From a virus (taxonomy: Duplodnaviria > Heunggongvirae > Uroviricota > Caudoviricetes), in IMG/VR virus record IMGVR_UViG_2675903368_000016: a stretch of DNA of 37,585 nt. One strand, written 5' to 3'. The position numbers and the translations under genes are program-made. This document shows positions 4,266-16,370 of this stretch, piece by piece; position 1 is the stretch's first letter, and each line of letters starts with the position of its first letter. A model generated the notes under the pieces. The model made no database searches. It was not told the DNA's origin and saw only the letters and a program-made list of their open reading frames with translations.

Positions 4266-4747
4266 GACAGCAGCCCTCCCACCGTTTTACTGATATCGCT
4301 TAAGGCAGACGTTGCCGTATCCTGCAAATTATTCAGCTGCGCACTGAGATCACCGAACATATCGGACAGGGATTCATCCACCCGTTTGAGCGACAGGGTA
4401 AACTCAATCCGGCGCGGCATACCATCGCGGAAAAACTCCGTTTTAGTCTGATTCAGTCCCTCAATCACATACATGCCGTAAATCGTGCCGCTGCCTTCAA
4501 TCAGGGGCCATGCTTTTCCCTGTTCTGCCATCTGCTCCAGAGCCAGCAACGACAGCCTGCCGCCCGTTATCTCCGGCATAAGAACACCAGAAAGCGTCAG
4601 CATGTCGTTGTCCGGTCCCAGAAACTGCGTGGACGGACGACGGTTTACCCGGCTGTTTGCCGCATGTCGCCAGCTGCGTTGATACTGCAGTTCCTGATAC
4701 GGAACGGTGCGCAGCATAAACACGTACAATCCCAGCACCATCATCAT
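4262..4747 (-). CDS. U: Tail protein gpU
   Basis: 161-aa ORF, overlaps the D start by 4 nt; P2 order T-U-D. Confidence 0.8.
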   Translation of the reverse strand: MMMVLGLYVFMLRTVPYQELQYQRSWRHAANSRVNRRPSTQFLGPDNDMLTLSGVLMPEITGGRLSLLALEQMAEQGKAWPLIEGSGTIYGMYVIEGLNQTKTEFFRDGMPRRIEFTLSLKRVDESLSDMFGDLSAQLNNLQDTATSALSDISKTVGGLLS

Positions 4748-7700
4748 GCGTCGTATCCCCCCTGATCGCTGTAGTTACTCCTGGCTTTTGCCTTCAGCCT
4801 GCGTTCACGTTCATCAAGCTGGCGGGCCACCTCCCGCGCAATATCCTGCGCACTTTGTCCTGGCTGCGTCTGGATGATGATCTGCGTCGGTGCCTCAATC
4901 CTGTAAACGGGCGGCACAGTGGCTGCGCGACTCACAATTGCTTCTCCACCTTTCGCGGGAAGTGCCAAAGGGTGCAACGGTGGAAGCTCTGCTGGCGCGG
5001 CAGCAACGCCCATCATTCCGGCAACAACGGCAGCCAGTGCAGCTGTATTTCTCCGGCTGGTCACATTTGCCGGGCCGTTAACAATTTCCGGCCCGTTTTC
5101 ACCGACGATGCCAAACTGCCCGCGCGGGATATAGCCGCCGCTGTCATACATCCCCGCAAAGCCATATCCCCATGACGGAAAACCACCCGATGGCATCATC
5201 ACTTTACCGTCTGCATTCACCGTCGCAGGTTGCTGACGCGTCACGCTTTCCGGCAGTTTCGCCTTTGCAGCCTCTTTACTGACAATGCCGAGTTTCTCCA
5301 GCAACCAGGAAACGCCGGATTTCAGGGAGTCCAGCGGATGCATGACCATATTCAGCCCTTCCGCCAGTGCCTCCCCGAATCGTCGCCCCATTGCCGCTGC
5401 GCTCTGCAGTTCGGCAGAGGTCGACTTAACGGGCGTCAGCAGATCAGTAAACCAGCCCCACAGCGCCTGCACTTTGTCGCCAATCCACTGAAACACAGGC
5501 TTAAGTGGTTCGAATGCAGCACTGATAGGACCTGCCGCCGCTTTGAATCCTTCCACCACACCAGCGAGAAATGCGGTGATGGGTTGCCAGTATTTCCAGA
5601 CAACCAGCGCTACGCCCGCCAGTGCAGTAACCACAAGACCTATCGGACTGAGCAGAGCACCTAACAGACCAGATATGGCATACAGGGCAACGCGCAGCAT
5701 CGCCAGCGGACCGGATGCCAGTACTCGCAGCACCGCGCCTGCGGCAGCCAGTCCACCGCGTAGTGCTGCCAGTGGATTCATAAACATCATAGCAACAGCA
5801 CGTAAACCGGATAATCCAGACCGCAACAGTGCAACCGGCACACCTGCTACAGTTTTCAGGACATTCCCCGTCAGTGATGCGGTGCGGCGCAAAGACGACA
5901 ACGGCGCAGTAAGTAAACCCGCTGCGTTGCCCGATGAAGCAAGCCCGCGTCGCAGCAGTGCCAGTGGAGCGCCAGCTAACCAGGACAACGCGCTGCTGGT
6001 TCGTGTTACTGCTGCCGTAACGGAAGGTAACGTTTTGATACCCAGCACAGAGAATCCCAGACGGATGACTGCCAGCGGCCCCAGTACTGCAGCCAGCGCC
6101 ACCGCTAAGGTGCCGAGGCCTACGGTAACCGCAGCCACAACAGCCGCTACTTTCATCAGTGTGCCTGTCAGTTCCGGGTTAGCTTCCACCCAGCGGCGCA
6201 ACGCCCCCGTGATGCTTTTTACCGTGTACAGAATATCCATCAGCGGCTGGCGCAGCGTTTCGCCCAGGCTGCTGAAGGTGTTCTGCGCTCCGGTTTTGAC
6301 CAGCAACCACTGAGCGGAAAGTGAGTCTTTGTTGATGTCGGATTCTTTCTGCATGGAACCGAGCGCATCATTGCCCGCTGTCAGTTTTAGCTGGCGCTGC
6401 AGTTCCGGAAGGTTGTTTGCCAGTTTCGCTGCATCATCACCAAACTCTTTACCAAACAACATGGTCATGGCAGACAGACGCTTGTCCTGCGGCAGTGCGT
6501 TCACCTTCTCCAGCACACGCTGGATAGTTCCCATCGCATCCTTCGTCATCTGCTTTTCAATCACTTCAGGATTGAGTTTCAGCAGATTCATCCCTTCAAA
6601 GAAACTCTTGCTTTGCATGGTGGCAATGGACAATTCACGCACCATCGCGTTTGCTGCACTGGCTGCAACCTCCGGCGCAGCGCCCAGTGTCAGAAAGGTG
6701 GACCCCAGTGCCGCCGCTTTACGATAATCCAGACGGTCAGCCACACCGCCCAGACGTTGCATAACATCAATGATCTCCGCCCCTTTCGACATGGCGTTAT
6801 CATCCAGATAGTTCAGCGCATCGCCGAGCTGTTCAATATTGCGGGTAGGTATTTTGTAGAGCTGTGCGATTTTCCCCAGACTTTCTGACAGTTCATCCGC
6901 TGGCAGCTCAAAGGCTGTTGCCGCCTTTGCTGCCGTACTGGCGAAGGCCAGCAGGTCACGTTTCTGGTCTTCCCAGCTGTCGTCAGGGTTTGCGACGTTC
7001 ATGCGCGCACCACCTTCAACCAGTGCAGCGAAGTCCACCGCACCGTTTTCCATCGGCAACTGTTCGCTGGCAGCCTTGATGGCATCCTGCATTTCATAAA
7101 AACGTGCAGTGCGGTTACCATTATCGTCACGCAGACCATTGACCTGCTTTGCCACACCTTTCATGGCATCTTCCATGCTGGTATAGCTTTTTACTGCCGC
7201 CATCACTGGCGCACCCATTGCCAGCCCTGCAGCCGTGGTAGTGGCTCCGGCTCCTGCGATGCGATCGCGCACTTCAAGCCGTCTTGAGTATTGTTCTCTG
7301 GCAGCGTTCATCCGTGCCTGTTGTTCACCCAGACGTTTAAGTGCTTTTTGCTGGCCCTCCAGTGCCTGCCTTGTTTCTTCAGCATTTTTCTTAAGTTCTC
7401 GCTGGGCACTACTGAGTTGTCTGGTATCAATCCCTGATTCTTTAAGTGCCTGACGTTGTCTCTGGACCGCCCCCAACAAGCCGTTATAGGTCTGCTGAAG
7501 TTCCTGTACTCGTGTTTTGGCCTGACTGAATAACTTTGCCTGCGCGGCGGTTGGCCTGTTAGTGGCAGCAAATTGTGTGGCGAGTTTTGCCGCCTCTTCG
7601 CGGGCTGCGTTCAGGTTGTTGGCTGTTATGGCTAGTTGCGAGCGCGTCTTGCGAAATTCATCAATTCTGCCAGCCTGCTTATTCAGTTCTTTGAGGCTGT

Positions 7701-7821
7701 TTCGGGTATTCTGAATTGCGCCAGCCAGCTCTTTCGAACTGGCCTGTGCAGCACGGAATGGGCGGGTGAGTTTGTCAACCGCATTAAGAATGACCTGCAG
7801 GCGCAGGTTATTATCACTCAT
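4744..7821 (-). CDS. T: Tail tape-measure protein gpT
   Basis: 1025-aa ORF with a long coiled-coil N-terminal part, hydrophobic Ala/Gly/Leu-rich middle and C-terminal domain; downstream of E/E'. Confidence 0.85.
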   Translation of the reverse strand: MSDNNLRLQVILNAVDKLTRPFRAAQASSKELAGAIQNTRNSLKELNKQAGRIDEFRKTRSQLAITANNLNAAREEAAKLATQFAATNRPTAAQAKLFSQAKTRVQELQQTYNGLLGAVQRQRQALKESGIDTRQLSSAQRELKKNAEETRQALEGQQKALKRLGEQQARMNAAREQYSRRLEVRDRIAGAGATTTAAGLAMGAPVMAAVKSYTSMEDAMKGVAKQVNGLRDDNGNRTARFYEMQDAIKAASEQLPMENGAVDFAALVEGGARMNVANPDDSWEDQKRDLLAFASTAAKAATAFELPADELSESLGKIAQLYKIPTRNIEQLGDALNYLDDNAMSKGAEIIDVMQRLGGVADRLDYRKAAALGSTFLTLGAAPEVAASAANAMVRELSIATMQSKSFFEGMNLLKLNPEVIEKQMTKDAMGTIQRVLEKVNALPQDKRLSAMTMLFGKEFGDDAAKLANNLPELQRQLKLTAGNDALGSMQKESDINKDSLSAQWLLVKTGAQNTFSSLGETLRQPLMDILYTVKSITGALRRWVEANPELTGTLMKVAAVVAAVTVGLGTLAVALAAVLGPLAVIRLGFSVLGIKTLPSVTAAVTRTSSALSWLAGAPLALLRRGLASSGNAAGLLTAPLSSLRRTASLTGNVLKTVAGVPVALLRSGLSGLRAVAMMFMNPLAALRGGLAAAGAVLRVLASGPLAMLRVALYAISGLLGALLSPIGLVVTALAGVALVVWKYWQPITAFLAGVVEGFKAAAGPISAAFEPLKPVFQWIGDKVQALWGWFTDLLTPVKSTSAELQSAAAMGRRFGEALAEGLNMVMHPLDSLKSGVSWLLEKLGIVSKEAAKAKLPESVTRQQPATVNADGKVMMPSGGFPSWGYGFAGMYDSGGYIPRGQFGIVGENGPEIVNGPANVTSRRNTAALAAVVAGMMGVAAAPAELPPLHPLALPAKGGEAIVSRAATVPPVYRIEAPTQIIIQTQPGQSAQDIAREVARQLDERERRLKAKARSNYSDQGGYDA

Positions 7822-7947: not shown

Positions 7948-8250
7948 TCAGGCTGTCGGTAAACCGGCAAGCACCGACTTCTTCAACAAAAAAGTGACAA
8001 CCTCAACCGACATGGCAGTGAGATCTGCCGGGTCCATCTCTGCAATTTCCTGTGCAGTCAGTGCCGGACTGGAGATGCGGGGGATCACGGTCATCATCGC
8101 GTTCACATCCATATCCATAATGGCCTGCAGGCGTGTACCGCGCAGCGCACCGGACTGCGGTTTACGCAGCACAATTTCGGTAATTTCTGTTTTACCGCGC
8201 TTGATAGGGGTATCCAGTTGAATGGTCTTTTCAGTCTGCTTATCGCTCAT
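7948..8250 (-). CDS. E: Tail assembly chaperone gpE (E+E' by programmed -1 frameshift)
   Basis: 100-aa ORF between FII and T; a T-TTT-TTG slippery heptamer lies in frame near its 3' end, as in P2 E/E'. Confidence 0.75.
   Translation of the reverse strand: MSDKQTEKTIQLDTPIKRGKTEITEIVLRKPQSGALRGTRLQAIMDMDVNAMMTVIPRISSPALTAQEIAEMDPADLTAMSVEVVTFLLKKSVLAGLPTA
7987..7993 (-). other. Candidate -1 programmed frameshift slippery site (T TTT TTG) for E+E'
   Basis: Minus-strand sequence ACT TTT TTG TTG AAG AAG in the E frame, about 13 codons before the E stop. Confidence 0.6.
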
Positions 8251-8304: not shown

Positions 8305-8820
8305 TCAGAGGCCGAGGGCGTTGCGGTGCGCTTCCATCAGGTCCACACCGTCCACAATTTCCACCATGTTGATAAGGTCCACTTCATAGAGCACCTCACC
8401 ATTGATGGTCAGCTTCGCGTAGCTGTTGGTACTGGTCACTTTGGTGGTGTTGCTTTCGCCCGTCTTCCACTCACCGGAATCCACTTCTTTGTGACGTCCA
8501 CGCACCACAAGCTCCACGGCCTGCACTTCCCCGGTATCGTCACGCTGGATAGAGCCGGTAAAGCGCAACTGGATGCCATCCACCGTGGCTTTGCCCATCT
8601 GCTTAAACAGCAGCAGTTCAGTACCACCAATGGAAAATTCTGTGTCCAGCGCACTGTCATCAAGCCCCAGATCCACATCCACTGCCCCCGGCATTCCGCC
8701 GCCGCGATACTTCTCATATTTGCGGGTGAATTTCGGCAGCGTCAGCGACTCAACGATCCCCTGCCAGTTGTTCCCGTCGTTAAACAGGTTCAGGTGTTTT
8801 AATTTGCGTGGTAAAGCCAT
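8305..8820 (-). CDS. FII: Tail tube protein gpFII
   Basis: 171-aa ORF directly downstream of the sheath gene; P2 order FI-FII-E. Confidence 0.85.
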   Translation of the reverse strand: MALPRKLKHLNLFNDGNNWQGIVESLTLPKFTRKYEKYRGGGMPGAVDVDLGLDDSALDTEFSIGGTELLLFKQMGKATVDGIQLRFTGSIQRDDTGEVQAVELVVRGRHKEVDSGEWKTGESNTTKVTSTNSYAKLTINGEVLYEVDLINMVEIVDGVDLMEAHRNALGL

Positions 8821-8829
8821 GTTGTCCCC

Positions 8830-10002
8830 TTACGCGCTGACCTGGCTGGCGAAATTCACCAGGTACTGATCGGTGATGCGCTGACGCAACATCAGATTTT
8901 CAAGTGGCGGCACTGGCGTGTAGTCGTAGTCGATGGTGAGTTTTCCGGCTTTCAGAGTGTCTTTGTCGTTCACCGACTCGTCCAGCCAGCAATCACCACC
9001 AATGAGATACCCCTGACTGACCAGGCTGCGCATTTTGGCGCGGATGCCCTCGATAATGTCGCGCGCCAGCGACGGGTTCAGCGGTTTGTCCACTGCCCAC
9101 ATGTGCGCTTCTGCCATTGTGTCCGTCAGCACCTGCGCCGTGCGGGTGTAGTTTTCGAAAGCAAAGAGCGGGTCATCACTCAGGCAGCGGGAACCCCAGA
9201 AGCGGAAACCGTCTTTACGCACAAGCGTGGTGACGTCGTTCTGGTTCAGCAGACCTGCATCGGTTGCCGGGTCCTGCAGATCCCAGAACACATCTGCAGA
9301 AATTCCGGTGACACCGTTCACGCCCACGTTGGACAGGCTTTTGTGCCACCCAGTCTGCTCATCAATTTTGGCACGCAGACCAAGCGCACGGGCGGTGGCA
9401 TATGCCGTTGCTTCGGCATTCAGCACCGTGTCCCAGCCAGTAAAGTCGGGCCAGATCAGCATTCCTTCGCGCTGGCTGAAGTTTTCACGGTAAGTGATCG
9501 CCTCCTGTACCGTCTTGCAGCCATACGCTGACAGGTAGGCAAACCCACGCAGGCTTTGCGCCACACTCAGCAACTCAGTCGCAACGGCTTTGTTATCGTG
9601 ACCTGGCACGCCGAGAATGCGCGGTTTAACGCCGAGCTGTGTCTGGGCAGATAACAGGGCTTTCATGCCTGTTTTTTTACCTTCAGCAGTCACTGCGCCG
9701 ATGATATTGGTCGTGGTTTCTTCTTCCGTTTCACCCTGCGGCACACGCACAACAACGGTCACGGGTTTTGCCTGGTCAGCGATGGCATCCAGCGAACGGG
9801 CCAGCGTGCCGGACTCACCCGCTTTACCGCTGGCAGTCAGCACATCAGTGATCAGCACGGGTTTATTAAGAGGAAACATTTTTGCATCGGCATCATCGCC
9901 CGTGCAGACCATGCCCACGATGGCGGTGCTCACCGTGGTAATGGATCGGGTACCTTCGTTGACTTCAACAACGCGCACCCCGTGGTGGTAATCCTGAGCC
10001 AT
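8830..10002 (-). CDS. FI: Contractile tail sheath protein gpFI
   Basis: 390-aa ORF; size and position fit the P2 sheath protein. Confidence 0.85.
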
Positions 10003-10096: not shown

Positions 10097-10144
10097 AAAT
10101 GACGGTATTTGTCTGCTTGCAGGGATAATCAAAATAATGCTGAT

Positions 10145-10717
10145 TCAGGGGGATTCATTACTCTTATTTGCCGGAAATTTTCTATAAATTGTGGAAACAC
10201 CCACATCAAAAATCAGTGCAATACGCTGTCTTGATTCTCCGGCCTCGAGTAAGCGTCCAATCTGTGCCCACTGTTCGGTGGTCAACTTAGGACGGCGTCC
10301 ACCTACTCTGCCTTTATCACGAGCTGCAGCCAGCCCCGCCCTGGTACGTTCAACTATCAGTTCGCGTTCCATTTCAGCCAGGGCCCCCATGACATGAAAA
10401 AAGAAACGGCCCATTGGGGTGCTGGTATCAATACTGTCAGTCAGGCTTCGGAAATTCACGCCACGCTGACGCAACTCTTCTATCAGCGTAACAAGATGCC
10501 GCATACTGCGCCCCAACCTGTCCAGCTTCCAGACAACCAGAGTGTCTCCTGCCGATAGTGTCCTGAGCAGTTTTTTAAGCCCCGGTCTGTCGGACTTAGT
10601 GCCACTGATTTTGTCCTCAAAAATCCGCTCACATCCCGCGCAGTTCAGTGCATTACGTTGCAAATCTGTGTTCTGGTCATTTGTTGACACGCGTACATAG
10701 CCAATAAGCATGATCAT
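10145..10717 (-). CDS. Serine DNA invertase, Hin/Gin/Pin/Cin family (copy 1)
   Basis: 190-aa ORF M(IM)LIGYVRVSTNDQNTDLQRNAL... with N-terminal catalytic Ser motif and C-terminal HTH; true start may be Met3. Confidence 0.9.
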   Translation of the reverse strand: MIMLIGYVRVSTNDQNTDLQRNALNCAGCERIFEDKISGTKSDRPGLKKLLRTLSAGDTLVVWKLDRLGRSMRHLVTLIEELRQRGVNFRSLTDSIDTSTPMGRFFFHVMGALAEMERELIVERTRAGLAAARDKGRVGGRRPKLTTEQWAQIGRLLEAGESRQRIALIFDVGVSTIYRKFPANKSNESP

Positions 10718-10738
10718 CTCCTTGAATAAAAATCGGGG

Positions 10739-11263
10739 ATGATGCCAGTTAGTCGTAATCGCTGCATTTTCTTATACGTTGGTTTGGGAGAAGGTTCGGC
10801 ATTACCCGTTGGTGTGCCTGTTCCATGGCCTTCAGCCACACCGCCAACAGGCTGGCTGAAATGCAACGGTGCGCCTTTTTCTGCAGAAGAATACCCGGAA
10901 CTGGCAAAGGCTTATCCAACAAATAAATTGCCTGATTTACGCGGTGAATTCATTCGCGGCTGGGATGATGGGCGCGGGGTGGATGCTGGTCGAGATTTGT
11001 TATCATCTCAAGGGGATGCAATAAGAAATATAACTGGAGGATTTAATATCAGACCTGGATCGAGCAGTGCTTTGATTACTTTCGCTGCTGGTGCTCTTAA
11101 AGTAGCATCAAGAGTTCAAAGTGCTTATGTCACAAACACTTCAGCCACTGACAAAATTGCTGAAGGTATAGACTTCGATGCCAGTGCTGCTCCTGGAGTT
11201 GTAACTGCATCTGAAAACCGTCCAAGAAATATCGCGTTTAACTACATTGTAAGGGCAGCATGA
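10739..11263 (+). CDS. Tail-fibre variable C-terminal module A (silent alternative receptor-binding domain)
   Basis: 174-aa ORF; after an 18-aa leader (MMPVSRNRCIFLYVGLGE) read from the invertase upstream region it continues ...PVPWPSATPPTGWLKCNGAPFSAEEYPELAKAYP, a tail-collar-type motif. Confidence 0.7.
   Translation: MMPVSRNRCIFLYVGLGEGSALPVGVPVPWPSATPPTGWLKCNGAPFSAEEYPELAKAYPTNKLPDLRGEFIRGWDDGRGVDAGRDLLSSQGDAIRNITGGFNIRPGSSSALITFAAGALKVASRVQSAYVTNTSATDKIAEGIDFDASAAPGVVTASENRPRNIAFNYIVRAA
10767..10792 (+). other. 26-bp invertase crossover site Z (hix/gix-like)
   Basis: TTTTCTTATACG-TT-GGTTTGGGAGAA, an imperfect dyad around a central TT; exact reverse complement of site Y. Confidence 0.7.
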
Positions 11264-11865
11264 TGAATAAAGTTGTATTAAATAGTGAGCTTATTGCTAC
11301 AAAGGCGGGGAGTGTTACCGTTTATAATTATGATGGCGAAACACGGGAATATATTGCCACATCAACTGAACATCTTGCTGTCGGTGTCGGTATCCCGGTA
11401 TGTTCTTGTTTAGATGCTCCGAGCTCAAACAAAGCTGGTTATGCAATCTGCCGTTCGGCAGATTTAAACTCATGGGAATATGTGCCAGACCATCGCGGTG
11501 AAACGGTCTATAGCACCGAAACAGGAGAATCAAAAGAAATCACCGCTCTGGGTGATTACCCTGAAAATACAACCACTATCGCCCCGTTAACGCCATATGA
11601 TAAATGGAATGGTGAAAAATGGGTGGCGGATACTGAGGCACAGCATAGCGCCGCAGTAGAAGCGGCAGAAGCACAGCGCCAGTCACTGATTGATGCTGCA
11701 ATGGCTTCCATTGGTCTGATTCAGCTGAAATTACAGGCCGGACGGAATCTGACGCAGGCAGAAACCGCCAGACTTAACGCTGCGCTGGATTACATTGACG
11801 CGGTGACGGCAACAGATACCAGCACGGCGCCGGATGTCATCTGGCCTGAACTGCCGGAGGCGTAG
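11260..11865 (+). CDS. Tail-fibre assembly chaperone, module A
   Basis: 201-aa ORF immediately after module A; conserved chaperone-type C-terminal end (...APDVIWPELPEA). Confidence 0.7.
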   Translation: MMNKVVLNSELIATKAGSVTVYNYDGETREYIATSTEHLAVGVGIPVCSCLDAPSSNKAGYAICRSADLNSWEYVPDHRGETVYSTETGESKEITALGDYPENTTTIAPLTPYDKWNGEKWVADTEAQHSAAVEAAEAQRQSLIDAAMASIGLIQLKLQAGRNLTQAETARLNAALDYIDAVTATDTSTAPDVIWPELPEA

Positions 11866-12277
11866 GCCATTCAATATCTGGCGCACTGGAAGTATCGACC
11901 AGTTCCAGTGCGTCCAGATAATCCAGCCACAAATTATATTGCGCCAGTTCCTCACCTTTCAGGCGACCAATCGCCGCTTTACCAGGCCATTGCTTACTGT
12001 GTGTGTATTCGTTGACCTGATTAATCAATTGCTGCTTTTCCAGTTCGGCTGCGGCAATTTGTTCCTCATGAGTTGGCGGTGGAATATCAATCCATGCAGG
12101 CATTCCGTCGATGACACCTCTGTATTTTCCTTCTGGTGCTTCCTTCATAAATTCGGCGGCAACAGTGTCGTCAATTTCGATTCCATCACCGGGCCATTCG
12201 CCGGATTCCTGATAAGCGATTTTAAGCTCCACAGGGAAAAACGCATTTTTATCGGCACTGAAAATATATTTCTGCAT
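11837..12277 (-). CDS. Tail-fibre assembly chaperone, module B (full length)
   Basis: 146-aa ORF MQKYIFSADKNAFFPVELKIAY... convergent with chaperone A; C-terminus ...APDIEWPTPPAVQAR. Confidence 0.7.
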   Translation of the reverse strand: MQKYIFSADKNAFFPVELKIAYQESGEWPGDGIEIDDTVAAEFMKEAPEGKYRGVIDGMPAWIDIPPPTHEEQIAAAELEKQQLINQVNEYTHSKQWPGKAAIGRLKGEELAQYNLWLDYLDALELVDTSSAPDIEWPTPPAVQAR

Positions 12278-12279
12278 TT

Positions 12280-12678
12280 CTACCGTCCTATCGAAATATA
12301 ACTGAATCTGTATTGCTGTGAGATATCACTGGTTGCCACACGCCACGCTGAATTACTGATATGTTCAAAATTTACAGACAAAACCTGCGGGGCAGGATTC
12401 GACGGGGCTGACTGAACGGCATCAGACATAACACTGACTGAAACCATCGGCTGATTAGGGAATGGTATAGGGAAGTGTCCACTGATAAAGCGGGTCGTGT
12501 TTCCTGAAAAAGTGCCAAACTGAACAATATATCCACCTGGTAGCCTGAACCATCCCGAACCAGAAGCGAATGCTCCCATATCCGGTATCTGATTATCTCC
12601 TGTGCCCACATCCCTTTTCGCCGCTTCTCCCAAACCAACGTATAAGAAAATGCAGCGATTACGACTAACTGGCATCAT
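12280..12678 (-). CDS. Tail-fibre variable C-terminal module B, stand-alone duplicate copy
   Basis: 132-aa ORF with the same 18-aa leader, then a sequence identical to the C-terminal 114 aa of H. Confidence 0.6.
   Translation of the reverse strand: MMPVSRNRCIFLYVGLGEAAKRDVGTGDNQIPDMGAFASGSGWFRLPGGYIVQFGTFSGNTTRFISGHFPIPFPNQPMVSVSVMSDAVQSAPSNPAPQVLSVNFEHISNSAWRVATSDISQQYRFSYISIGR
12625..12650 (-). other. 26-bp invertase crossover site Y (hybrid site)
   Basis: Plus strand TTCTCCCAAACC-AA-CGTATAAGAAAA; left half identical to site X, right half identical to reverse-complement Z, with identity switching at the central AA. Confidence 0.7.
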
Positions 12679-12699
12679 CCCCGATTTTTATTCAAGGAG

Positions 12700-13443
12700 A
12701 TGATCATGCTTATTGGCTATGTACGCGTGTCAACAAATGACCAGAACACAGATTTGCAACGTAATGCACTGAACTGCGCGGGATGTGAGCGGATTTTTGA
12801 GGACAAAATCAGTGGCACTAAGTCCGACAGACCGGGGCTTAAAAAACTGCTCAGGACACTATCGGCAGGAGACACTCTGGTTGTCTGGAAGCTGGACAGG
12901 TTGGGGCGCAGTATGCGGCATCTTGTTACGCTGATAGAAGAGTTGCGTCAGCGTGGCGTGAATTTCCGAAGCCTGACTGACAGTATTGATACCAGCACCC
13001 CAATGGGCCGTTTCTTTTTTCATGTCATGGGGGCCCTGGCTGAAATGGAACGCGAACTGATAGTTGAACGTACCAGGGCGGGGCTGGCTGCAGCTCGTGA
13101 TAAAGGCAGAGTAGGTGGACGCCGTCCTAAGTTGACCACCGAACAGTGGGCACAGATTGGACGCTTACTCGAGGCCGGAGAATCAAGACAGCGTATTGCA
13201 CTGATTTTTGATGTGGGTGTTTCCACAATTTATAGAAAATTTCCGGCAAATAAGAGTAATGAAGTATTTTCCTTCTGGTGCTTCCTTCATAAATTCGGCG
13301 GCAACAGTGTCGTCAATTTCGATTCCATCACCGGGCCATTCGCCGGATTCCTGATAAGCGATTTTAAGCTCCACAGGGAAAAACGCATTTTTATCGGCAC
13401 TGAAAATATATTTCTGCATTTCTACCGTCCTATCGAAATATAA
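12700..13443 (+). CDS. Serine DNA invertase copy 2, C-terminally fused to 59 aa read antisense through a truncated chaperone gene
   Basis: First 188 aa identical to copy 1 (nucleotide identity 12625-13263 = reverse complement of 10154-10792); diverges after ...FPANKSNE. Confidence 0.8.
   Translation: MIMLIGYVRVSTNDQNTDLQRNALNCAGCERIFEDKISGTKSDRPGLKKLLRTLSAGDTLVVWKLDRLGRSMRHLVTLIEELRQRGVNFRSLTDSIDTSTPMGRFFFHVMGALAEMERELIVERTRAGLAAARDKGRVGGRRPKLTTEQWAQIGRLLEAGESRQRIALIFDVGVSTIYRKFPANKSNEVFSFWCFLHKFGGNSVVNFDSITGPFAGFLISDFKLHREKRIFIGTENIFLHFYRPIEI
13264..13419 (-). pseudogene. Truncated tail-fibre assembly chaperone B (first 52 codons only)
   Basis: Sequence identical to the 5' end of the 11837-12277 gene, then abruptly joined to the 3' end of invertase copy 2. 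Confidence 0.7.
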
Positions 13444-14828
13444 CTGAATCTGTATTGCTGTGAGATATCACTGGTTGCCACACGCCACGCTGAATTACTG
13501 ATATGTTCAAAATTTACAGACAAAACCTGCGGGGCAGGATTCGACGGGGCTGACTGAACGGCATCAGACATAACACTGACTGAAACCATCGGCTGATTAG
13601 GGAATGGTATAGGGAAGTGTCCACTGATAAAGCGGGTCGTGTTTCCTGAAAAAGTGCCAAACTGAACAATATATCCACCTGGTAGCCTGAACCATCCCGA
13701 ACCAGAAGCGAATGCTCCCATATCCGGTATCTGATTATCTCCTGTGCCCACATCCCTTTTCGCCGCTTCTCCCAAACCAAGGTATGAGAGAAGACCAGCG
13801 ACATCCTTTCCACTCAAATTAGTCAGCGTATTGTCCAGCGGTTGTTTACCTGCCAGCGCATTAAGCATTGTCGTGGCAAAGTTCGGATCATTCCCCAGTG
13901 CCGCCGCCAGTTCGTTCAGTGTATCCAGTGCAGCAGGTGCAGACCCCACCATTGCTGCAATTGCCGATTTCACAAAAGCCGTGGTGGCAATCTGTGTATT
14001 GTTAACCGACTGTGCGGCAGTGGGGGCTGTTGGCGTTCCGGTGAGTGCCGGACTTGACAGCGGCGCTTTCAGTGCCAGCGCATTGTTAATGGTGGTACTG
14101 AATTTCGGATCATTGTTAATGGCTGCGGCTAATTCTTTCAGCGTGTCCAGCGTGGCTGGCGCACCATTAATCAGGGCCGTCAGTGCCGCCTGAACAAACG
14201 CGGTGGTCGCAACCTGCGTGGTGTTATTCCCTGCCGCTGGCGTTGGCGCTTTTGGTGTCCCGGTAAACGTCGGACTTTCTTTCTGTGCATACTGTGAATG
14301 CGGGTCCGGTGCGGCAAGATGTTTTGCCATCTGATCATCCACGTACACCTTCAGCTCCAGTACCTTGTCATCCACATACTTGCGGGTTGCCAGCACTACG
14401 GCAGGGTCGATTTTCAGGGTGATATTGTCCGTGCTGCTGGTAATCAGCACCATGCGCACGGTCTGGGTACGCCCGCTGCCTTCAGCCAGTTGCGGTTTAT
14501 AGCTTTCCGGGCAGTTCCCCACGGCAATCAATGCCCCTGACTCATCAAACAGGCCCACTTCACGTATCCACCAACCGCCCTCGTTTTCAGGGATCACCTG
14601 TTCAGCAATAATCTGGCTGCTGTTCTGCGGGTCGATATAGAGCATATTCAGCGCAGCCCGGCGTTTCTCATTTACCAGTGCCGTCTGCTTTGCGTCCGGC
14701 GTCGGCAATGCTCCGCCGCCATCGCCCACCGCCATATGGGTAATTTTTAGCGGCACACCGAGCGCGGCGGCGCTGGCAAGTTTCGCCGCGCCAATATCCG
14801 TCAGCAGGGTATAAAATTTTGTGCTCAT
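13422..14828 (-). CDS. H: Tail fibre protein gpH, currently carrying variable module B
   Basis: 468-aa ORF; constant N-terminal part with repeated ...TTAFV...APA.LDTL.ELAAA... motifs, then LGLGE junction and module B C-terminus. Confidence 0.85.
   Translation of the reverse strand: MSTKFYTLLTDIGAAKLASAAALGVPLKITHMAVGDGGGALPTPDAKQTALVNEKRRAALNMLYIDPQNSSQIIAEQVIPENEGGWWIREVGLFDESGALIAVGNCPESYKPQLAEGSGRTQTVRMVLITSSTDNITLKIDPAVVLATRKYVDDKVLELKVYVDDQMAKHLAAPDPHSQYAQKESPTFTGTPKAPTPAAGNNTTQVATTAFVQAALTALINGAPATLDTLKELAAAINNDPKFSTTINNALALKAPLSSPALTGTPTAPTAAQSVNNTQIATTAFVKSAIAAMVGSAPAALDTLNELAAALGNDPNFATTMLNALAGKQPLDNTLTNLSGKDVAGLLSYLGLGEAAKRDVGTGDNQIPDMGAFASGSGWFRLPGGYIVQFGTFSGNTTRFISGHFPIPFPNQPMVSVSVMSDAVQSAPSNPAPQVLSVNFEHISNSAWRVATSDISQQYRFSYISIGR
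13767..13792 (-). other. 26-bp invertase crossover site X inside H (constant/variable junction)
   Basis: Minus strand TTCTCTCATACC-TT-GGTTTGGGAGAA; half-sites match at 10 of 12 positions; encodes the LGLGE junction. Confidence 0.7.
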
Positions 14829-15430
14829 GGATTCACTCTCATTGTGTCAATAACATGGACCGCCCCGCCTTCATGCGCGGTGCCACCGGAAATAATCGTT
14901 TCGTTGATATACGGATAGATCGTGATTTCTTCGCCAAGATAGCTGGCGGCTCCCACCCAATGCGGGCCGCTGGTCTGCAGATTGATGGACATGCCGATCA
15001 TGTGGCGGCTACATGGTTTGGCATCGCTTATCAGTCGCTCAAGTTCCAGATAGGTATCTTCAGTGATGCCCTGGTCCTGCACGCCGATATCCAGGCGAAA
15101 CGTGCCCGGTGCCTCTCCGGTTTGCCACCACTCAATAATGCGGATCAGAAAGCCGAACGGCTCCACCACCCGCCGCACGGCACTGGTGGTCCCTTTATGC
15201 TGATGAATATAAAAAGCATCCTTCACCACCTGGCGCTTGACGCTTTCTGTCCAGCCCTCGTCCCAGCGATCCACAGAGAACGCCCAGGCGAGATAAGGCA
15301 GGAAACTGACCGGACAGGTTGCCGGATTCCACAAGTCACGAAGCGGCACCTGCAGATCAGAAATCCCGCTGCAGGTTTGCGCCAGTCGGCGCTCCAGTGG
15401 TGTTGAACCCGGTGGCAGCAGACTATTCAT
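14825..15430 (-). CDS. I: Baseplate protein gpI
   Basis: 201-aa ORF between J and H; P2 order V-W-J-I-H. Confidence 0.8.
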   Translation of the reverse strand: MNSLLPPGSTPLERRLAQTCSGISDLQVPLRDLWNPATCPVSFLPYLAWAFSVDRWDEGWTESVKRQVVKDAFYIHQHKGTTSAVRRVVEPFGFLIRIIEWWQTGEAPGTFRLDIGVQDQGITEDTYLELERLISDAKPCSRHMIGMSINLQTSGPHWVGAASYLGEEITIYPYINETIISGGTAHEGGAVHVIDTMRVNP

Positions 15431-16370
15431 CCGTTCCTCCGTTGGTTACGCTCCACTGCGTACATGATGCCGCCTGTGTTTTGTTCAGGACCACATCCGC
15501 CAGAGGAGAAGCCAGCTCCACACGCTGCACACCCTCAACATGCAGGGCGGCAAAGATGGCGCTACGGCGAATATCCCGACCAAGACGCGTCTGACTGGCG
15601 ATGTACTTCTGCAGGCTGGCTTTTGCCGCTGCCATTACCGGCTCTGCTTCCGGTCCCGGATAGAGAAAAATGGTGGCTTCCACGCGATACGGGATGATTT
15701 CTGCGCTGCGAACCGTAAGACGGTCAGCCACCGGGCGGACGTTCTCACTGTTCAGAGCTTTTTCCACCACGTCCAGCAGGTCTTTTTCTGCAGTTCCATC
15801 GCCTTCGCGGCTAAGGACTGTCAGCACCACCTCTGCAGGTGCCGGGCTGGTTGCACTGGCATCCGCCACCCGACCGTCGGCGCTTCGGGCATGAAATTCA
15901 TAAGCTGCAGTTGGCCCCGCAACTGAAAGCCCTTCAAAGGCTGCAGGCACACGCAGGCGTAACGCTTCATCGCTTTCCATCACAGCTGCAACGGGCGGCA
16001 CAGCGTCATTATCAGCAGGCGTCACCGTCAGGCGTTTCACGTTGTAGTTGGCAGCGAGCTGGTCAAGATCGCTGCCCATCGCGTAAGCCACCATCACAGC
16101 CTGCGCGGCTTCGTTAATGCGCTGGCGCAGAAGCAACTCACGGTAAGCGTTCTCCTGCAGCAATTTGGTGACGGGTTCAGATTCCAGTTTCAGCGTGCGG
16201 ATCACTGCTTCCTGCTCATCTTTCGGATGAAGCGCAACAAATTCGGCCTTGCGTTCGGCAAGCAGCGTCTCAAAGTCCGGCACATCCACAATCTGCGGCG
16301 CAGGCAACTGCGAAAGGTCAATCACTGCCATTCTCTGCTCCTGTTGATACGGAAAGGGAAACAGGCACAC
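15423..16370 (-). CDS. J: Baseplate protein gpJ
   Basis: 315-aa ORF; position and size fit P2 J. Confidence 0.8.
   Translation of the reverse strand: MCLFPFPYQQEQRMAVIDLSQLPAPQIVDVPDFETLLAERKAEFVALHPKDEQEAVIRTLKLESEPVTKLLQENAYRELLLRQRINEAAQAVMVAYAMGSDLDQLAANYNVKRLTVTPADNDAVPPVAAVMESDEALRLRVPAAFEGLSVAGPTAAYEFHARSADGRVADASATSPAPAEVVLTVLSREGDGTAEKDLLDVVEKALNSENVRPVADRLTVRSAEIIPYRVEATIFLYPGPEAEPVMAAAKASLQKYIASQTRLGRDIRRSAIFAALHVEGVQRVELASPLADVVLNKTQAASCTQWSVTNGGTDE

Follow-up and report, generated by a model that had tools for sequence, protein, structure and literature searches.

How two alternative tail-fibre C-terminal modules can both be present in one prophage as stand-alone open reading frames (ORFs) with the same 18-residue start is the question raised by the locus analysed here, which lies in a 37,585-nt stretch of viral DNA (IMG/VR record IMGVR_UViG_2675903368_000016; hereafter the window). 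The locus represents an invertible tail-fibre switch of the Gin/Pin type, and the host prophage is P2-like, with a P2-like tail cluster that is apparently complete. Within the segment lie two alternative C-terminal modules, each with its own chaperone; the constant N-terminus of the tail-fibre protein H is encoded outside, and the invertase gene adjoins the segment. Pfam assignments agree with this layout: H comprises Phage_tail_fib and Gp53-like_C domains, module A has a Collar domain, and two Caudo_TAP genes are found in opposite orientation, namely tfaA (11260..11865, + strand; 3e-32) and full-length tfaB (11837..12277, − strand; 1e-33), the tail-fibre assembly chaperones of modules A and B, respectively. 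Gene H (13422..14828, − strand) joins the constant N-terminal part to module B (copy 1) and is the form expressed in the present orientation; its length (468 aa) and position match the tail-fibre gene of a normal prophage in E. coli GCA_001284645.2 (L084). The left copy of the invertase gene (10145..10711, − strand) encodes a Gin/Pin-type serine recombinase of 188 aa from the ATG at 10711, with a second in-frame ATG at 10717. Its product matches Resolvase (PF00239, 7e-53) and HTH_7 (PF02796, 1.5e-15), begins with MLIGYVRVS, which includes the catalytic serine, and is 86% identical to PinE of e14 and 75% identical to Gin of Mu. Gin, Hin, and Cin depend on a Fis-dependent recombinational enhancer located within the 5' part of the invertase gene, and a comparable element would be expected in the window.

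The two ORFs in question are ORF-A (10739..11263, + strand, 174 aa), in which an 18-aa leader precedes module A (Collar domain, PF07484), and ORF-B (12280..12678, − strand, 132 aa), in which it precedes a second copy of module B (Gp53-like_C, PF21882). Both start with ATG-ATG and both read MMPVSRNRCIFLYVGLGE, confirming the original prediction that the modules occur as stand-alone ORFs with an identical leader. The crossover dinucleotide divides the leader: fourteen of the 18 residues (MMPVSRNRCIFLYV) are encoded on its invertase side, while the other four, GLGE, come from the half-site common to all modules. Both ORF starts fall within a perfect 640-nt inverted repeat (10154-10793 / 12624-13263) that spans the invertase gene with its upstream region as well as a 26-bp crossover site, and it is because of this repeat, rather than by chance, that the starts are identical. 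The repeats likewise bear out the proposal that the leader derives from identical invertase-upstream regions at the two ends of the segment. ORF-B lies on the strand of the late tail operon, with H upstream, and its stop codon is 2 nt from the start of tfaB; ORF-A is opposed to the late operon.

Hundreds of enterobacterial genomes have annotated ORFs of this leader type, and about 3,000 E. coli genomes harbour the locus. The 173-aa form of ORF-A, read from the second ATG, has an exact counterpart in NCBI, named 'phage tail protein' and present on 11 contigs, and exact look-ups of ORF-A from its first ATG and of ORF-B in a collection of 15 billion proteins returned no match. Proteins of 132 aa that are 90-97% identical to ORF-B are annotated across many E. 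coli, Klebsiella, and Salmonella genomes, and these leader-plus-module B proteins fall in clusters with hundreds of members; in P0119, an e14-type leader is joined to a 90%-identical module B. Module B is seen fused to the constant part of H (468 aa, L084) as well as to the leader (the 132-aa proteins), and module A is seen fused to the leader. This indirect evidence, drawn from different genomes and not from one population, suggests that both orientations occur in nature.

Three crossover sites of 26 bp were identified. The first, gix3 (10767..10792; TTTTCTTATACG TT GGTTTGGGAGAA; central dinucleotide 10779-10780), joins the invertase side to module A, pairs with gix1 as an inverted repeat, and has a core identical to the e14 repeat TTGGTTTGGGAGAAGG. 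The second, gix2 (12625..12650; TTCTCCCAAACC AA CGTATAAGAAAA; central dinucleotide 12637-12638), connects the invertase side with module B (copy 2), and gix1 (13767..13792; TTCTCCCAAACC AA GGTATGAGAGAA; central dinucleotide 13779-13780) lies inside H. A perfect 517-nt direct repeat ends exactly at 12638, in the central AA of gix2, and this break in identity between the copies at the central dinucleotide is the footprint of a past exchange there.

The presence of a third site goes back to an extra 1,142 bp (12639..13780, equivalently 12122-13263), which holds module B and the invertase together with the outer half-site and the 5' portion of tfaB. Once these 1,142 bp are removed, the window matches L084 over 10,522 nt, gap-free and at 99.99%, and the duplicated copies are 100% identical to one another. 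At the duplication junction (13263..13264), the invertase gene is fused by its 3' end to a position within tfaB without microhomology, the inverted repeat ending at 13263 and the direct repeat starting at 13264. The right invertase gene (12706..13443, + strand) is native up to 13263, with Resolvase and HTH_7 intact; beyond that point, 59 foreign codons take the place of its final two codons and stop, yielding a 247-aa ORF from 12700. On the other side of the junction, a truncated tfaB' (13183..13419, − strand) starts with 52 native codons (13264-13419) and continues with 26 codons that are out of context, and a Pfam search with it gave no match. When 10779-13780 is inverted in silico, the result is exactly 2.0 perfect tandem units, and the inverted form contains an intact H(A) of 510 aa plus tfaA. 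We propose that the 1,142-bp piece was duplicated in tandem while the segment lay in the other orientation, and that one ordinary inversion, between the site in H and the distal invertase-side site, would then have left the segment flanked on both sides by an invertase copy. The simultaneous presence of the leader on both modules would be a consequence of this duplication. An alternative origin, in which a circle of 1,142 bp was inserted into a crossover site, was also considered and rejected: it is less economical than a tandem duplication followed by a single inversion, and Gin/Pin-type invertases disfavour intermolecular and direct-repeat reactions (see also PMC11850598).

While the duplication would account for two leaders instead of one, the existence of a leader ORF at all appears to have a different source, as the leader is likely the reverse complement of the invertase's promoter as predicted from sequence conservation. 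For the left copy, the predicted promoter (10739..10767, − strand) occupies bases whose + strand forms leader codons 1-10, and would consist of a −10 hexamer CATCAT (10739-10744), which is ATGATG of the leader on the + strand, an extended −10 TGG (10745-10747; CCA of the leader), a 17-nt spacer that includes TGG (10745-10761), and a −35-like ATGCAG (10762-10767), all on the − strand. Leader codons ~3-8 (five or six, variable among relatives) would then represent the rest of the 17-nt spacer, codons 8-10 would overlap the −35-like hexamer, codons 10-14 (from 10767) would form the outer half of the 26-bp crossover site, and GLGE would correspond to the inner half-site. Any module brought next to the invertase would in this manner become an ATG-initiated ORF, the one known as stfE in e14 and as Mup52 in Mu, and in the ordinary state the leader start would be found on the silent module only. 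In gin and cin, the promoter and the neighbouring crossover site overlap. Reading the conserved TGGCA as a sigma-54 element was rejected, there being no TTGC at the proper spacing.

A comparative set of 24 distinct homologous upstream regions (the window, e14, Mu, and 21 more) could be aligned without gaps. CAT is invariant, TGG near-invariant, and the spacer hypervariable, with fixed spacing and zero indels; in the two regions lacking the TG motif, the −35 (TTGCAT) is better. The leader ATG is unchanged in all 24, an invariance that we attribute to the −10 element on the opposite strand. In-frame stops occur ahead of the crossover point in 9/24 regions, and leaders are open in 15/24 versus 11.9 expected from shuffles, although the regions are phylogenetically related and these counts are therefore not independent. 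Open leaders are found in the e14, Mu, and window lineages. Within the spacer codons, information content at positions 1, 2, and 3 is 0.38, 0.77, and 0.58, respectively, such that the third position is not relaxed, and near-identical module B proteins differ in their leader residues. As read from this alignment, the comparative data give no sign of selection for an open leader.

Translation and transcription signals were evaluated for the same region. The GGGGA Shine-Dalgarno-like motif noted in the original prediction is indeed there, but GGGG(A) abuts the first ATG with a gap of 0-2 nt (anti-SD duplex −4.5 to −5.7 kcal/mol), and the argument drawn from it is weak because of this spacing. For comparison, the invertase has AAGGAG 5 nt before 10711 (−8.5 kcal/mol), and the FI Shine-Dalgarno sequence has a gap of 7 nt (−11.0 kcal/mol). 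A hairpin in the invertase leader that might mask its Shine-Dalgarno sequence (ATCATCCCC...GGAGATGAT; −9.9 kcal/mol) has a z-score of only −1.8 and was not relied on. A sigma-70 consensus scan of 10100-13900 returned 5 sites versus 5.4 expected, which is chance level, with no promoter-like site near or aimed directly into the leader of ORF-A or ORF-B; the single + strand match upstream of ORF-A (10109-10138, 9/12) lies beyond the 3' end of the invertase gene. The scan misses the proposed extended −10 promoter because its −35 is poor. Given the stops in 9/24 regions, the absent codon-position signature, and the GGGG abutting the ATG, the leader looks like a by-product rather than a selected coding sequence, and the leader ORFs would be translated little or not at all. 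Promoter-derived leader ORFs, combined with a 1,142-bp tandem duplication followed by inversion, provide the best explanation overall and, in our judgement, a probable one.

Comparison with known systems places most of these features in a familiar setting. In the P-segment/PinE system of e14 (E. coli K-12), stfE (b1157) starts at the homologous ATG (MPFACYFFIFINVGLGE), 27-29 nt from the invertase gene, and ORF-A is 59% identical to StfE (E 1e-65). Between K-12 StfE2 and ORF-B only the leader aligns; the B domain shows no significant similarity, although the Gp53-like_C family is common to both. e14 is a lambdoid remnant, unlike the P2-like prophage of the window, and with its single invertase it carries StfE or StfE2 but never both, whereas the window, its invertase region being duplicated, has both. 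In the Mu G segment/Gin system (S, U, U', S'), the TGGCAT motif is retained and the site-to-gene spacing equals that of the window. There, the silent S' part has been annotated as the CDS Mup52, which extends past the G-segment boundary and has the homologous in-frame ATG-CCA (MPCVPKSTIIQNLGLQE) just upstream of its annotated GTG start. Mu differs in its far longer modules, its single gin and two gix sites, and its central dinucleotide (GA/TC versus AA/TT in the window). Single-invertase relatives have the same ATGATG, annotated as CDS. The assertion that silent modules of classical systems lack a start codon is consequently wrong, given the homologous ATG in e14 stfE, Mup52, and the single-invertase relatives; it does apply to other invertase subgroups, whose outer half-site has an in-frame stop. 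StfE-like ORFs were already known from e14 (stfE) and Mu, and the finding is in this respect mostly ordinary.

The number of crossover sites invites comparison with multiple-inversion systems, of which Min of p15B is one. The window has three sites but two distinct modules, the third module being a 100% identical copy of B, and hence fewer than the three or more C-termini of a shufflon. A three-site tail-fibre shufflon has been described in a P2-like prophage of EPEC E2348/69 (Goldberg et al. 2014; PMC4272514), where three crossover sites make multiple inversions possible, as in the window. That prophage has three different C-termini and one invertase, whereas the window has a duplicate module B and a second invertase, and its third site adds no new specificity because it stems from the exact module B duplicate.

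Searches of 5,426 complete E. coli genomes, a phage collection, IMG/VR, and JGI metagenomes did not turn up the junction, and neither the fused invertase nor the truncated tfaB' has an exact match in the 15-billion-protein collection. Because the junction is missing from the public collections searched, the duplication either arose recently by rearrangement or reflects an error in the assembly. Under the latter reading, the layout with two invertases and three sites would be an assembly or chimeric-read artefact from a population with the segment in both orientations; no single molecule would then carry both leader ORFs, and the real one would be an ordinary silent-module ORF only. The missing junction, the failure to find the fused invertase and exact ORF-B among known proteins, the 100% identity of the copies, and the match of the de-duplicated window to a normal prophage are all consistent with such an error. 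Invertible segments also disturb assemblies, as many draft contigs stop 60-130 nt upstream of the invertase, and a palindromic draft contig of the same prophage (L086) has invertase-FI-FII on both sides. However, a repeat-induced misjoin would fall within a repeat, whereas junction 13263/13264 lacks any shared sequence, and a single legitimate inversion turns the structure into a tandem duplication of exactly 2.0 units, a type of genuine mutation that is common. Furthermore, in Trabulsiella odontotermitis two invertase paralogues (94% aa identity) flank a tail-fibre segment, a pair that cannot be an identical-repeat artefact because the paralogues have diverged. We consider an artefact the less probable explanation, though not a remote one.

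A different objection is that the leader ORFs are genes in their own right, with the prophage making free StfE/StfE2-type receptor-binding C-terminal domains from the invertase-proximal ATG, for example as receptor-blocking or superinfection-exclusion proteins, and with the duplication permitting both together. There is a published precedent in StfE2 of e14: Kirigo et al. 2025 (PMC12529663) report that plasmid-made StfE2 (stfE leader plus gp53-like module) blocks T2 adsorption and that T2 resistance is seen in a strain whose P segment is inverted, which implies some native expression of such an ORF. ORF-A is homologous to StfE and shares its start, ORF-B has the architecture of StfE2 (leader plus Gp53-like_C), P0119 joins an e14-type leader to a similar module B, and ORF-B, being downstream of H on the same strand, could receive read-through transcription and be translationally coupled to tfaB. 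The invariant ATG could be counted here as well, but it is accounted for by the opposite-strand −10 element, and the leader stops, the near-chance fraction of open leaders, the lack of a codon-position signature, and the 0-2 nt spacing of GGGG all speak against dedicated genes, as do the orientation of ORF-A and the failure to find a promoter-like site for it. In addition, the published activity was obtained with protein overproduced from a plasmid, StfE itself had no effect, and the K-12 annotation lists stfE as a pseudogene. Expression of the leader ORFs may nonetheless occur, given the StfE2 precedent; that the prophage makes such free domains as real genes we judge unlikely, and that the duplication is real and both ORFs are expressed in this way very unlikely indeed. 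Were both expressed, ORF-B would be made by late-operon read-through, coupled to the sole intact tfaB, soluble tips of both specificities would act as receptor blockers beside a functional virion fibre, and a phase-variable decoy would have become a constitutive pair.

The preferred reading, in which the leader is derived from the invertase promoter, has consequences for annotation: 'phage tail protein' ORFs beside Gin/Pin invertases would owe their start codon to the −10 element of the invertase and need not be genes. The anti-phage claim for StfE2 concerns the same type of ORF, and a promoter-derived leader that is broken in approximately one third of relatives may aid the design of tests of that claim. 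If the duplication is real, the window would offer a snapshot of extra crossover sites and invertase copies arising, and a plausible first step towards multi-module shufflons. Tryptic peptides of the two ORFs are CIFLYVGLGEAAK in ORF-B and CIFLYVGLGEGSALPVGVPVPWPSATPPTGWLK in ORF-A.

A cluster of P2-like tail genes lies on the minus strand of the window and comprises the tape measure gene (4744-7821), E (7948-8250), the tube protein gene FII (8305-8820), the sheath protein gene FI (8830-10002), the tail-fibre gene H (13422-14828), I (14825-15430), and J (15423-16370). The interval between FI and H is occupied by an invertible cassette of tail-fibre modules that includes a serine invertase (Resolvase and HTH_7 domains; N-terminal motif MLIGYVRVS) that is 86% identical to PinE of e14 and 75% identical to Gin of Mu. 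Of its three crossover sites, gix3 (10767-10792) joins the invertase side to module A, gix2 (12625-12650) joins the invertase side to module B, and gix1 (13767-13792) lies within H. No tRNA or tmRNA genes were found in the window using ARAGORN; a full-length RybB sRNA gene at 2700-2778 on the plus strand (Rfam RF00110, 105 bits) is a marker of host chromosome near one prophage end.

The original prediction that both alternative tail-fibre C-terminal modules exist as stand-alone ORFs with an identical 18-aa leader was borne out: ORF-A (10739-11263, plus strand; 174 aa, Collar domain) and ORF-B (12280-12678, minus strand; 132 aa, Gp53-like_C domain) both begin MMPVSRNRCIFLYVGLGE, and the ORFs and their common leader are real sequence features. 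Because both starts lie inside a perfect 640-nt inverted repeat (10154-10793 and 12624-13263), which holds almost the entire invertase gene, its upstream region, and the 26-bp crossover site, the shared leader is not due to chance. Codon 14 of the leader contains the crossover dinucleotide, and residues 1-14 therefore derive from the invertase side; the residues GLGE are encoded by the half-site present in all modules (H counterpart, LSYLGLGE). A perfect 517-nt direct repeat (12122-12638 and 13264-13780) terminates precisely at the crossover site's central AA.

The premise that silent modules of classical systems lack a start codon holds for MQIGYVRV-type invertase subgroups, in which an in-frame stop inside the outer half-site leaves the silent module without any start, but fails for the closest classical systems. 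In Mu, the silent S' coding sequence Mup52 is annotated in RefSeq beyond the G-segment boundary, with a homologous in-frame ATG-CCA (MPCVPKSTIIQNLGLQE), and in e14 of E. coli K-12 the tail-fibre ORF stfE (b1157, currently marked as a pseudogene) begins at the leader's homologous ATG (MPFACYFFIFINVGLGE), its product sharing 59% identity with ORF-A. The 173-aa form of ORF-A has an exact NCBI match named "phage tail protein", present on 11 contigs, mostly of normal architecture, and ORF-B homologues (132 aa, leader included) form clusters of hundreds of members. Leader ORFs are a known side product of how the Gin/Pin switch is laid out, and they are widely annotated.

Conservation across 24 distinct homologous regions upstream of the invertase (from Mu, e14, phage Cartapus, E. 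coli LR-33, and loci of many enterobacterial genera), which align without gaps from the crossover site through a conserved TGGCAT, suggests that this region is laid out on the invertase strand as an extended -10 promoter. A putative -35 element (ATGCAG/ATGACC) overlapping the end of the crossover site is followed by a putative 17-nt spacer and then TGn plus CATNNT, with AAGGAG and the invertase ATG approximately 20 nt beyond CATNNT; the two sequences without the TG motif carry a better -35, TTGCAT. In gin and cin, the promoter overlaps the crossover site next to it. In the leader, ATGATG and CCA are the reverse complements of CATCAT and TGG, respectively, and the variable codons correspond to the spacer. 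An imperfect inverted repeat, ATCATCCCC ... GGAGATGAT, at 12674-12704 on the plus strand (mirrored at 10713-10743 on the minus strand) could pair the invertase Shine-Dalgarno with the -10 region; its fold is -9.9 kcal/mol with a z-score of only -1.8, relatives have similar arms, and its 5' arm possibly precedes the transcription start.

Comparison of these sequences argues against a selected coding leader. The leader ATG is invariant (24/24), in-frame stops occur between it and the crossover point in 9 of the 24 sequences, and the 15 open leaders compare with 11.9 expected from per-sequence shuffles. Information content of the spacer codons is 0.38, 0.77, and 0.58 at positions 1, 2, and 3, respectively, with no third-position relaxation in the 24-sequence alignment, and in annotated leader-module B proteins the leader varies at several positions and the 114-residue module is nearly invariant. 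The predicted Shine-Dalgarno-like GGGGA is present (-4.5 to -5.7 kcal/mol), but lies directly against the leader ATG with a gap of only 0-2 nt, in contrast to the invertase, FI, I, and W, whose sites are well spaced. No promoter-like site was found near, or aimed directly into, either leader ORF, the whole scan being at chance level; the sole plus-strand match upstream of ORF-A (10109-10138) is past the invertase 3' end. Expression of the leader ORFs is possible, notably of ORF-B, which runs in the same direction as the late operon and whose stop lies 2 nt from the start of the assembly chaperone gene tfaB.

The speculation that free receptor-binding domains could be made has a published counterpart in StfE2. 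According to Kirigo et al. 2025 (PMC12529663), who mapped neither a promoter nor the translation start, StfE2 arises when the e14 P segment inverts and consists of the stfE leader joined to a gp53-like module; StfE2 made from a plasmid is reported to block T2 adsorption, and a strain with the inverted P segment to be resistant. A P2-like tail-fibre shufflon with three sites has previously been reported from EPEC (PMC4272514). Module B (90-99% identical) is also found in e14-like elements (P0071, P0119), joined to either a StfP-type N-terminus (215 aa) or the e14-type leader MMPFACYFFIFINVGLGE (132 aa), and this recurrence shows that fibre modules are exchanged between P2-like and lambdoid elements.

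The leader occurs on both modules together because of a 1,142-bp duplication. Upon removal of 12639-13780 (1,142 bp), the window gives a 10,522-nt match, with one mismatch and no gaps, to L084, a normal single-invertase prophage in E. coli GCA_001284645.2. When the window is inverted in silico from the central dinucleotide of gix3 to that of gix1, the result is exactly 2.0 perfect 1,142-bp tandem units, each made up of the invertase, one crossover site, module B, and the tfaB 5' portion; this form also has an intact H(A), the H constant part joined to module A (510 aa), followed by tfaA. Given these two results, tandem duplication followed by a single ordinary inversion is the simplest history. 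On this history, the right invertase copy lost its stop and final two codons, with reading continuing to 247 aa, the H-adjacent tfaB was left with 52 native codons, and the sole intact tfaB sits behind ORF-B. Two chimeric ORFs span the junction, one (12700-13443, plus strand) encoding the invertase with a 59-aa C-terminal extension from tfaB/module B antisense, the other (13183-13419, minus strand) a 78-aa tfaB fragment. In the present orientation, H(B) has no intact chaperone gene directly downstream.

The duplication is unique and its reality unproven: no copy of its junction turned up in 5,426 complete E. coli genomes, 50,697 phage records, IMG/VR, or JGI metagenomes, and its fused proteins are missing from a 15-billion-protein collection. 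The two-invertase arrangement could instead be an assembly artefact, given that invertible segments disturb assemblies; many draft contigs stop 60-130 nt upstream of a Gin/Pin-type invertase gene, which shows frequent short-read assembly breaks at such segments, and a draft contig of the same prophage (L086) is a long palindrome with invertase-FI-FII on either side of the segment. Against an artefact, the inverted repeat stops at 13263 and the direct repeat begins at 13264, which makes the novel junction blunt, without sequence common to either parent, and the structure resolves to an exact tandem repeat. On balance, the duplication is probably real.

Contig ends at or next to the crossover site were seen at loci L004, L011, L013, L015, L031, L033, L034, L037, and others. 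L086 (1-10522; E. coli GCA_001265155.1, contig JHQX01000026.1), which belongs to this prophage lineage, carries invertase, FI, FII, E, and T to either side of the invertible segment, with an inverted repeat of at least 3.6 kb reaching the locus end, and both of its modules have the identical leader MMPVSRNRCIFLYVGLGE; its palindrome looks like misassembly through the invertible segment. In Trabulsiella odontotermitis (NZ_JNGH01000101.1, ~153.5-165.2 kb; L007 and L026), two divergent invertase paralogues (94% amino acid identity) lie 4.65 kb apart, each with a crossover site 64 nt upstream, and flank a tail-fibre and chaperone region beside host ahp-like genes, an example of a two-invertase arrangement that is natural and diverged.
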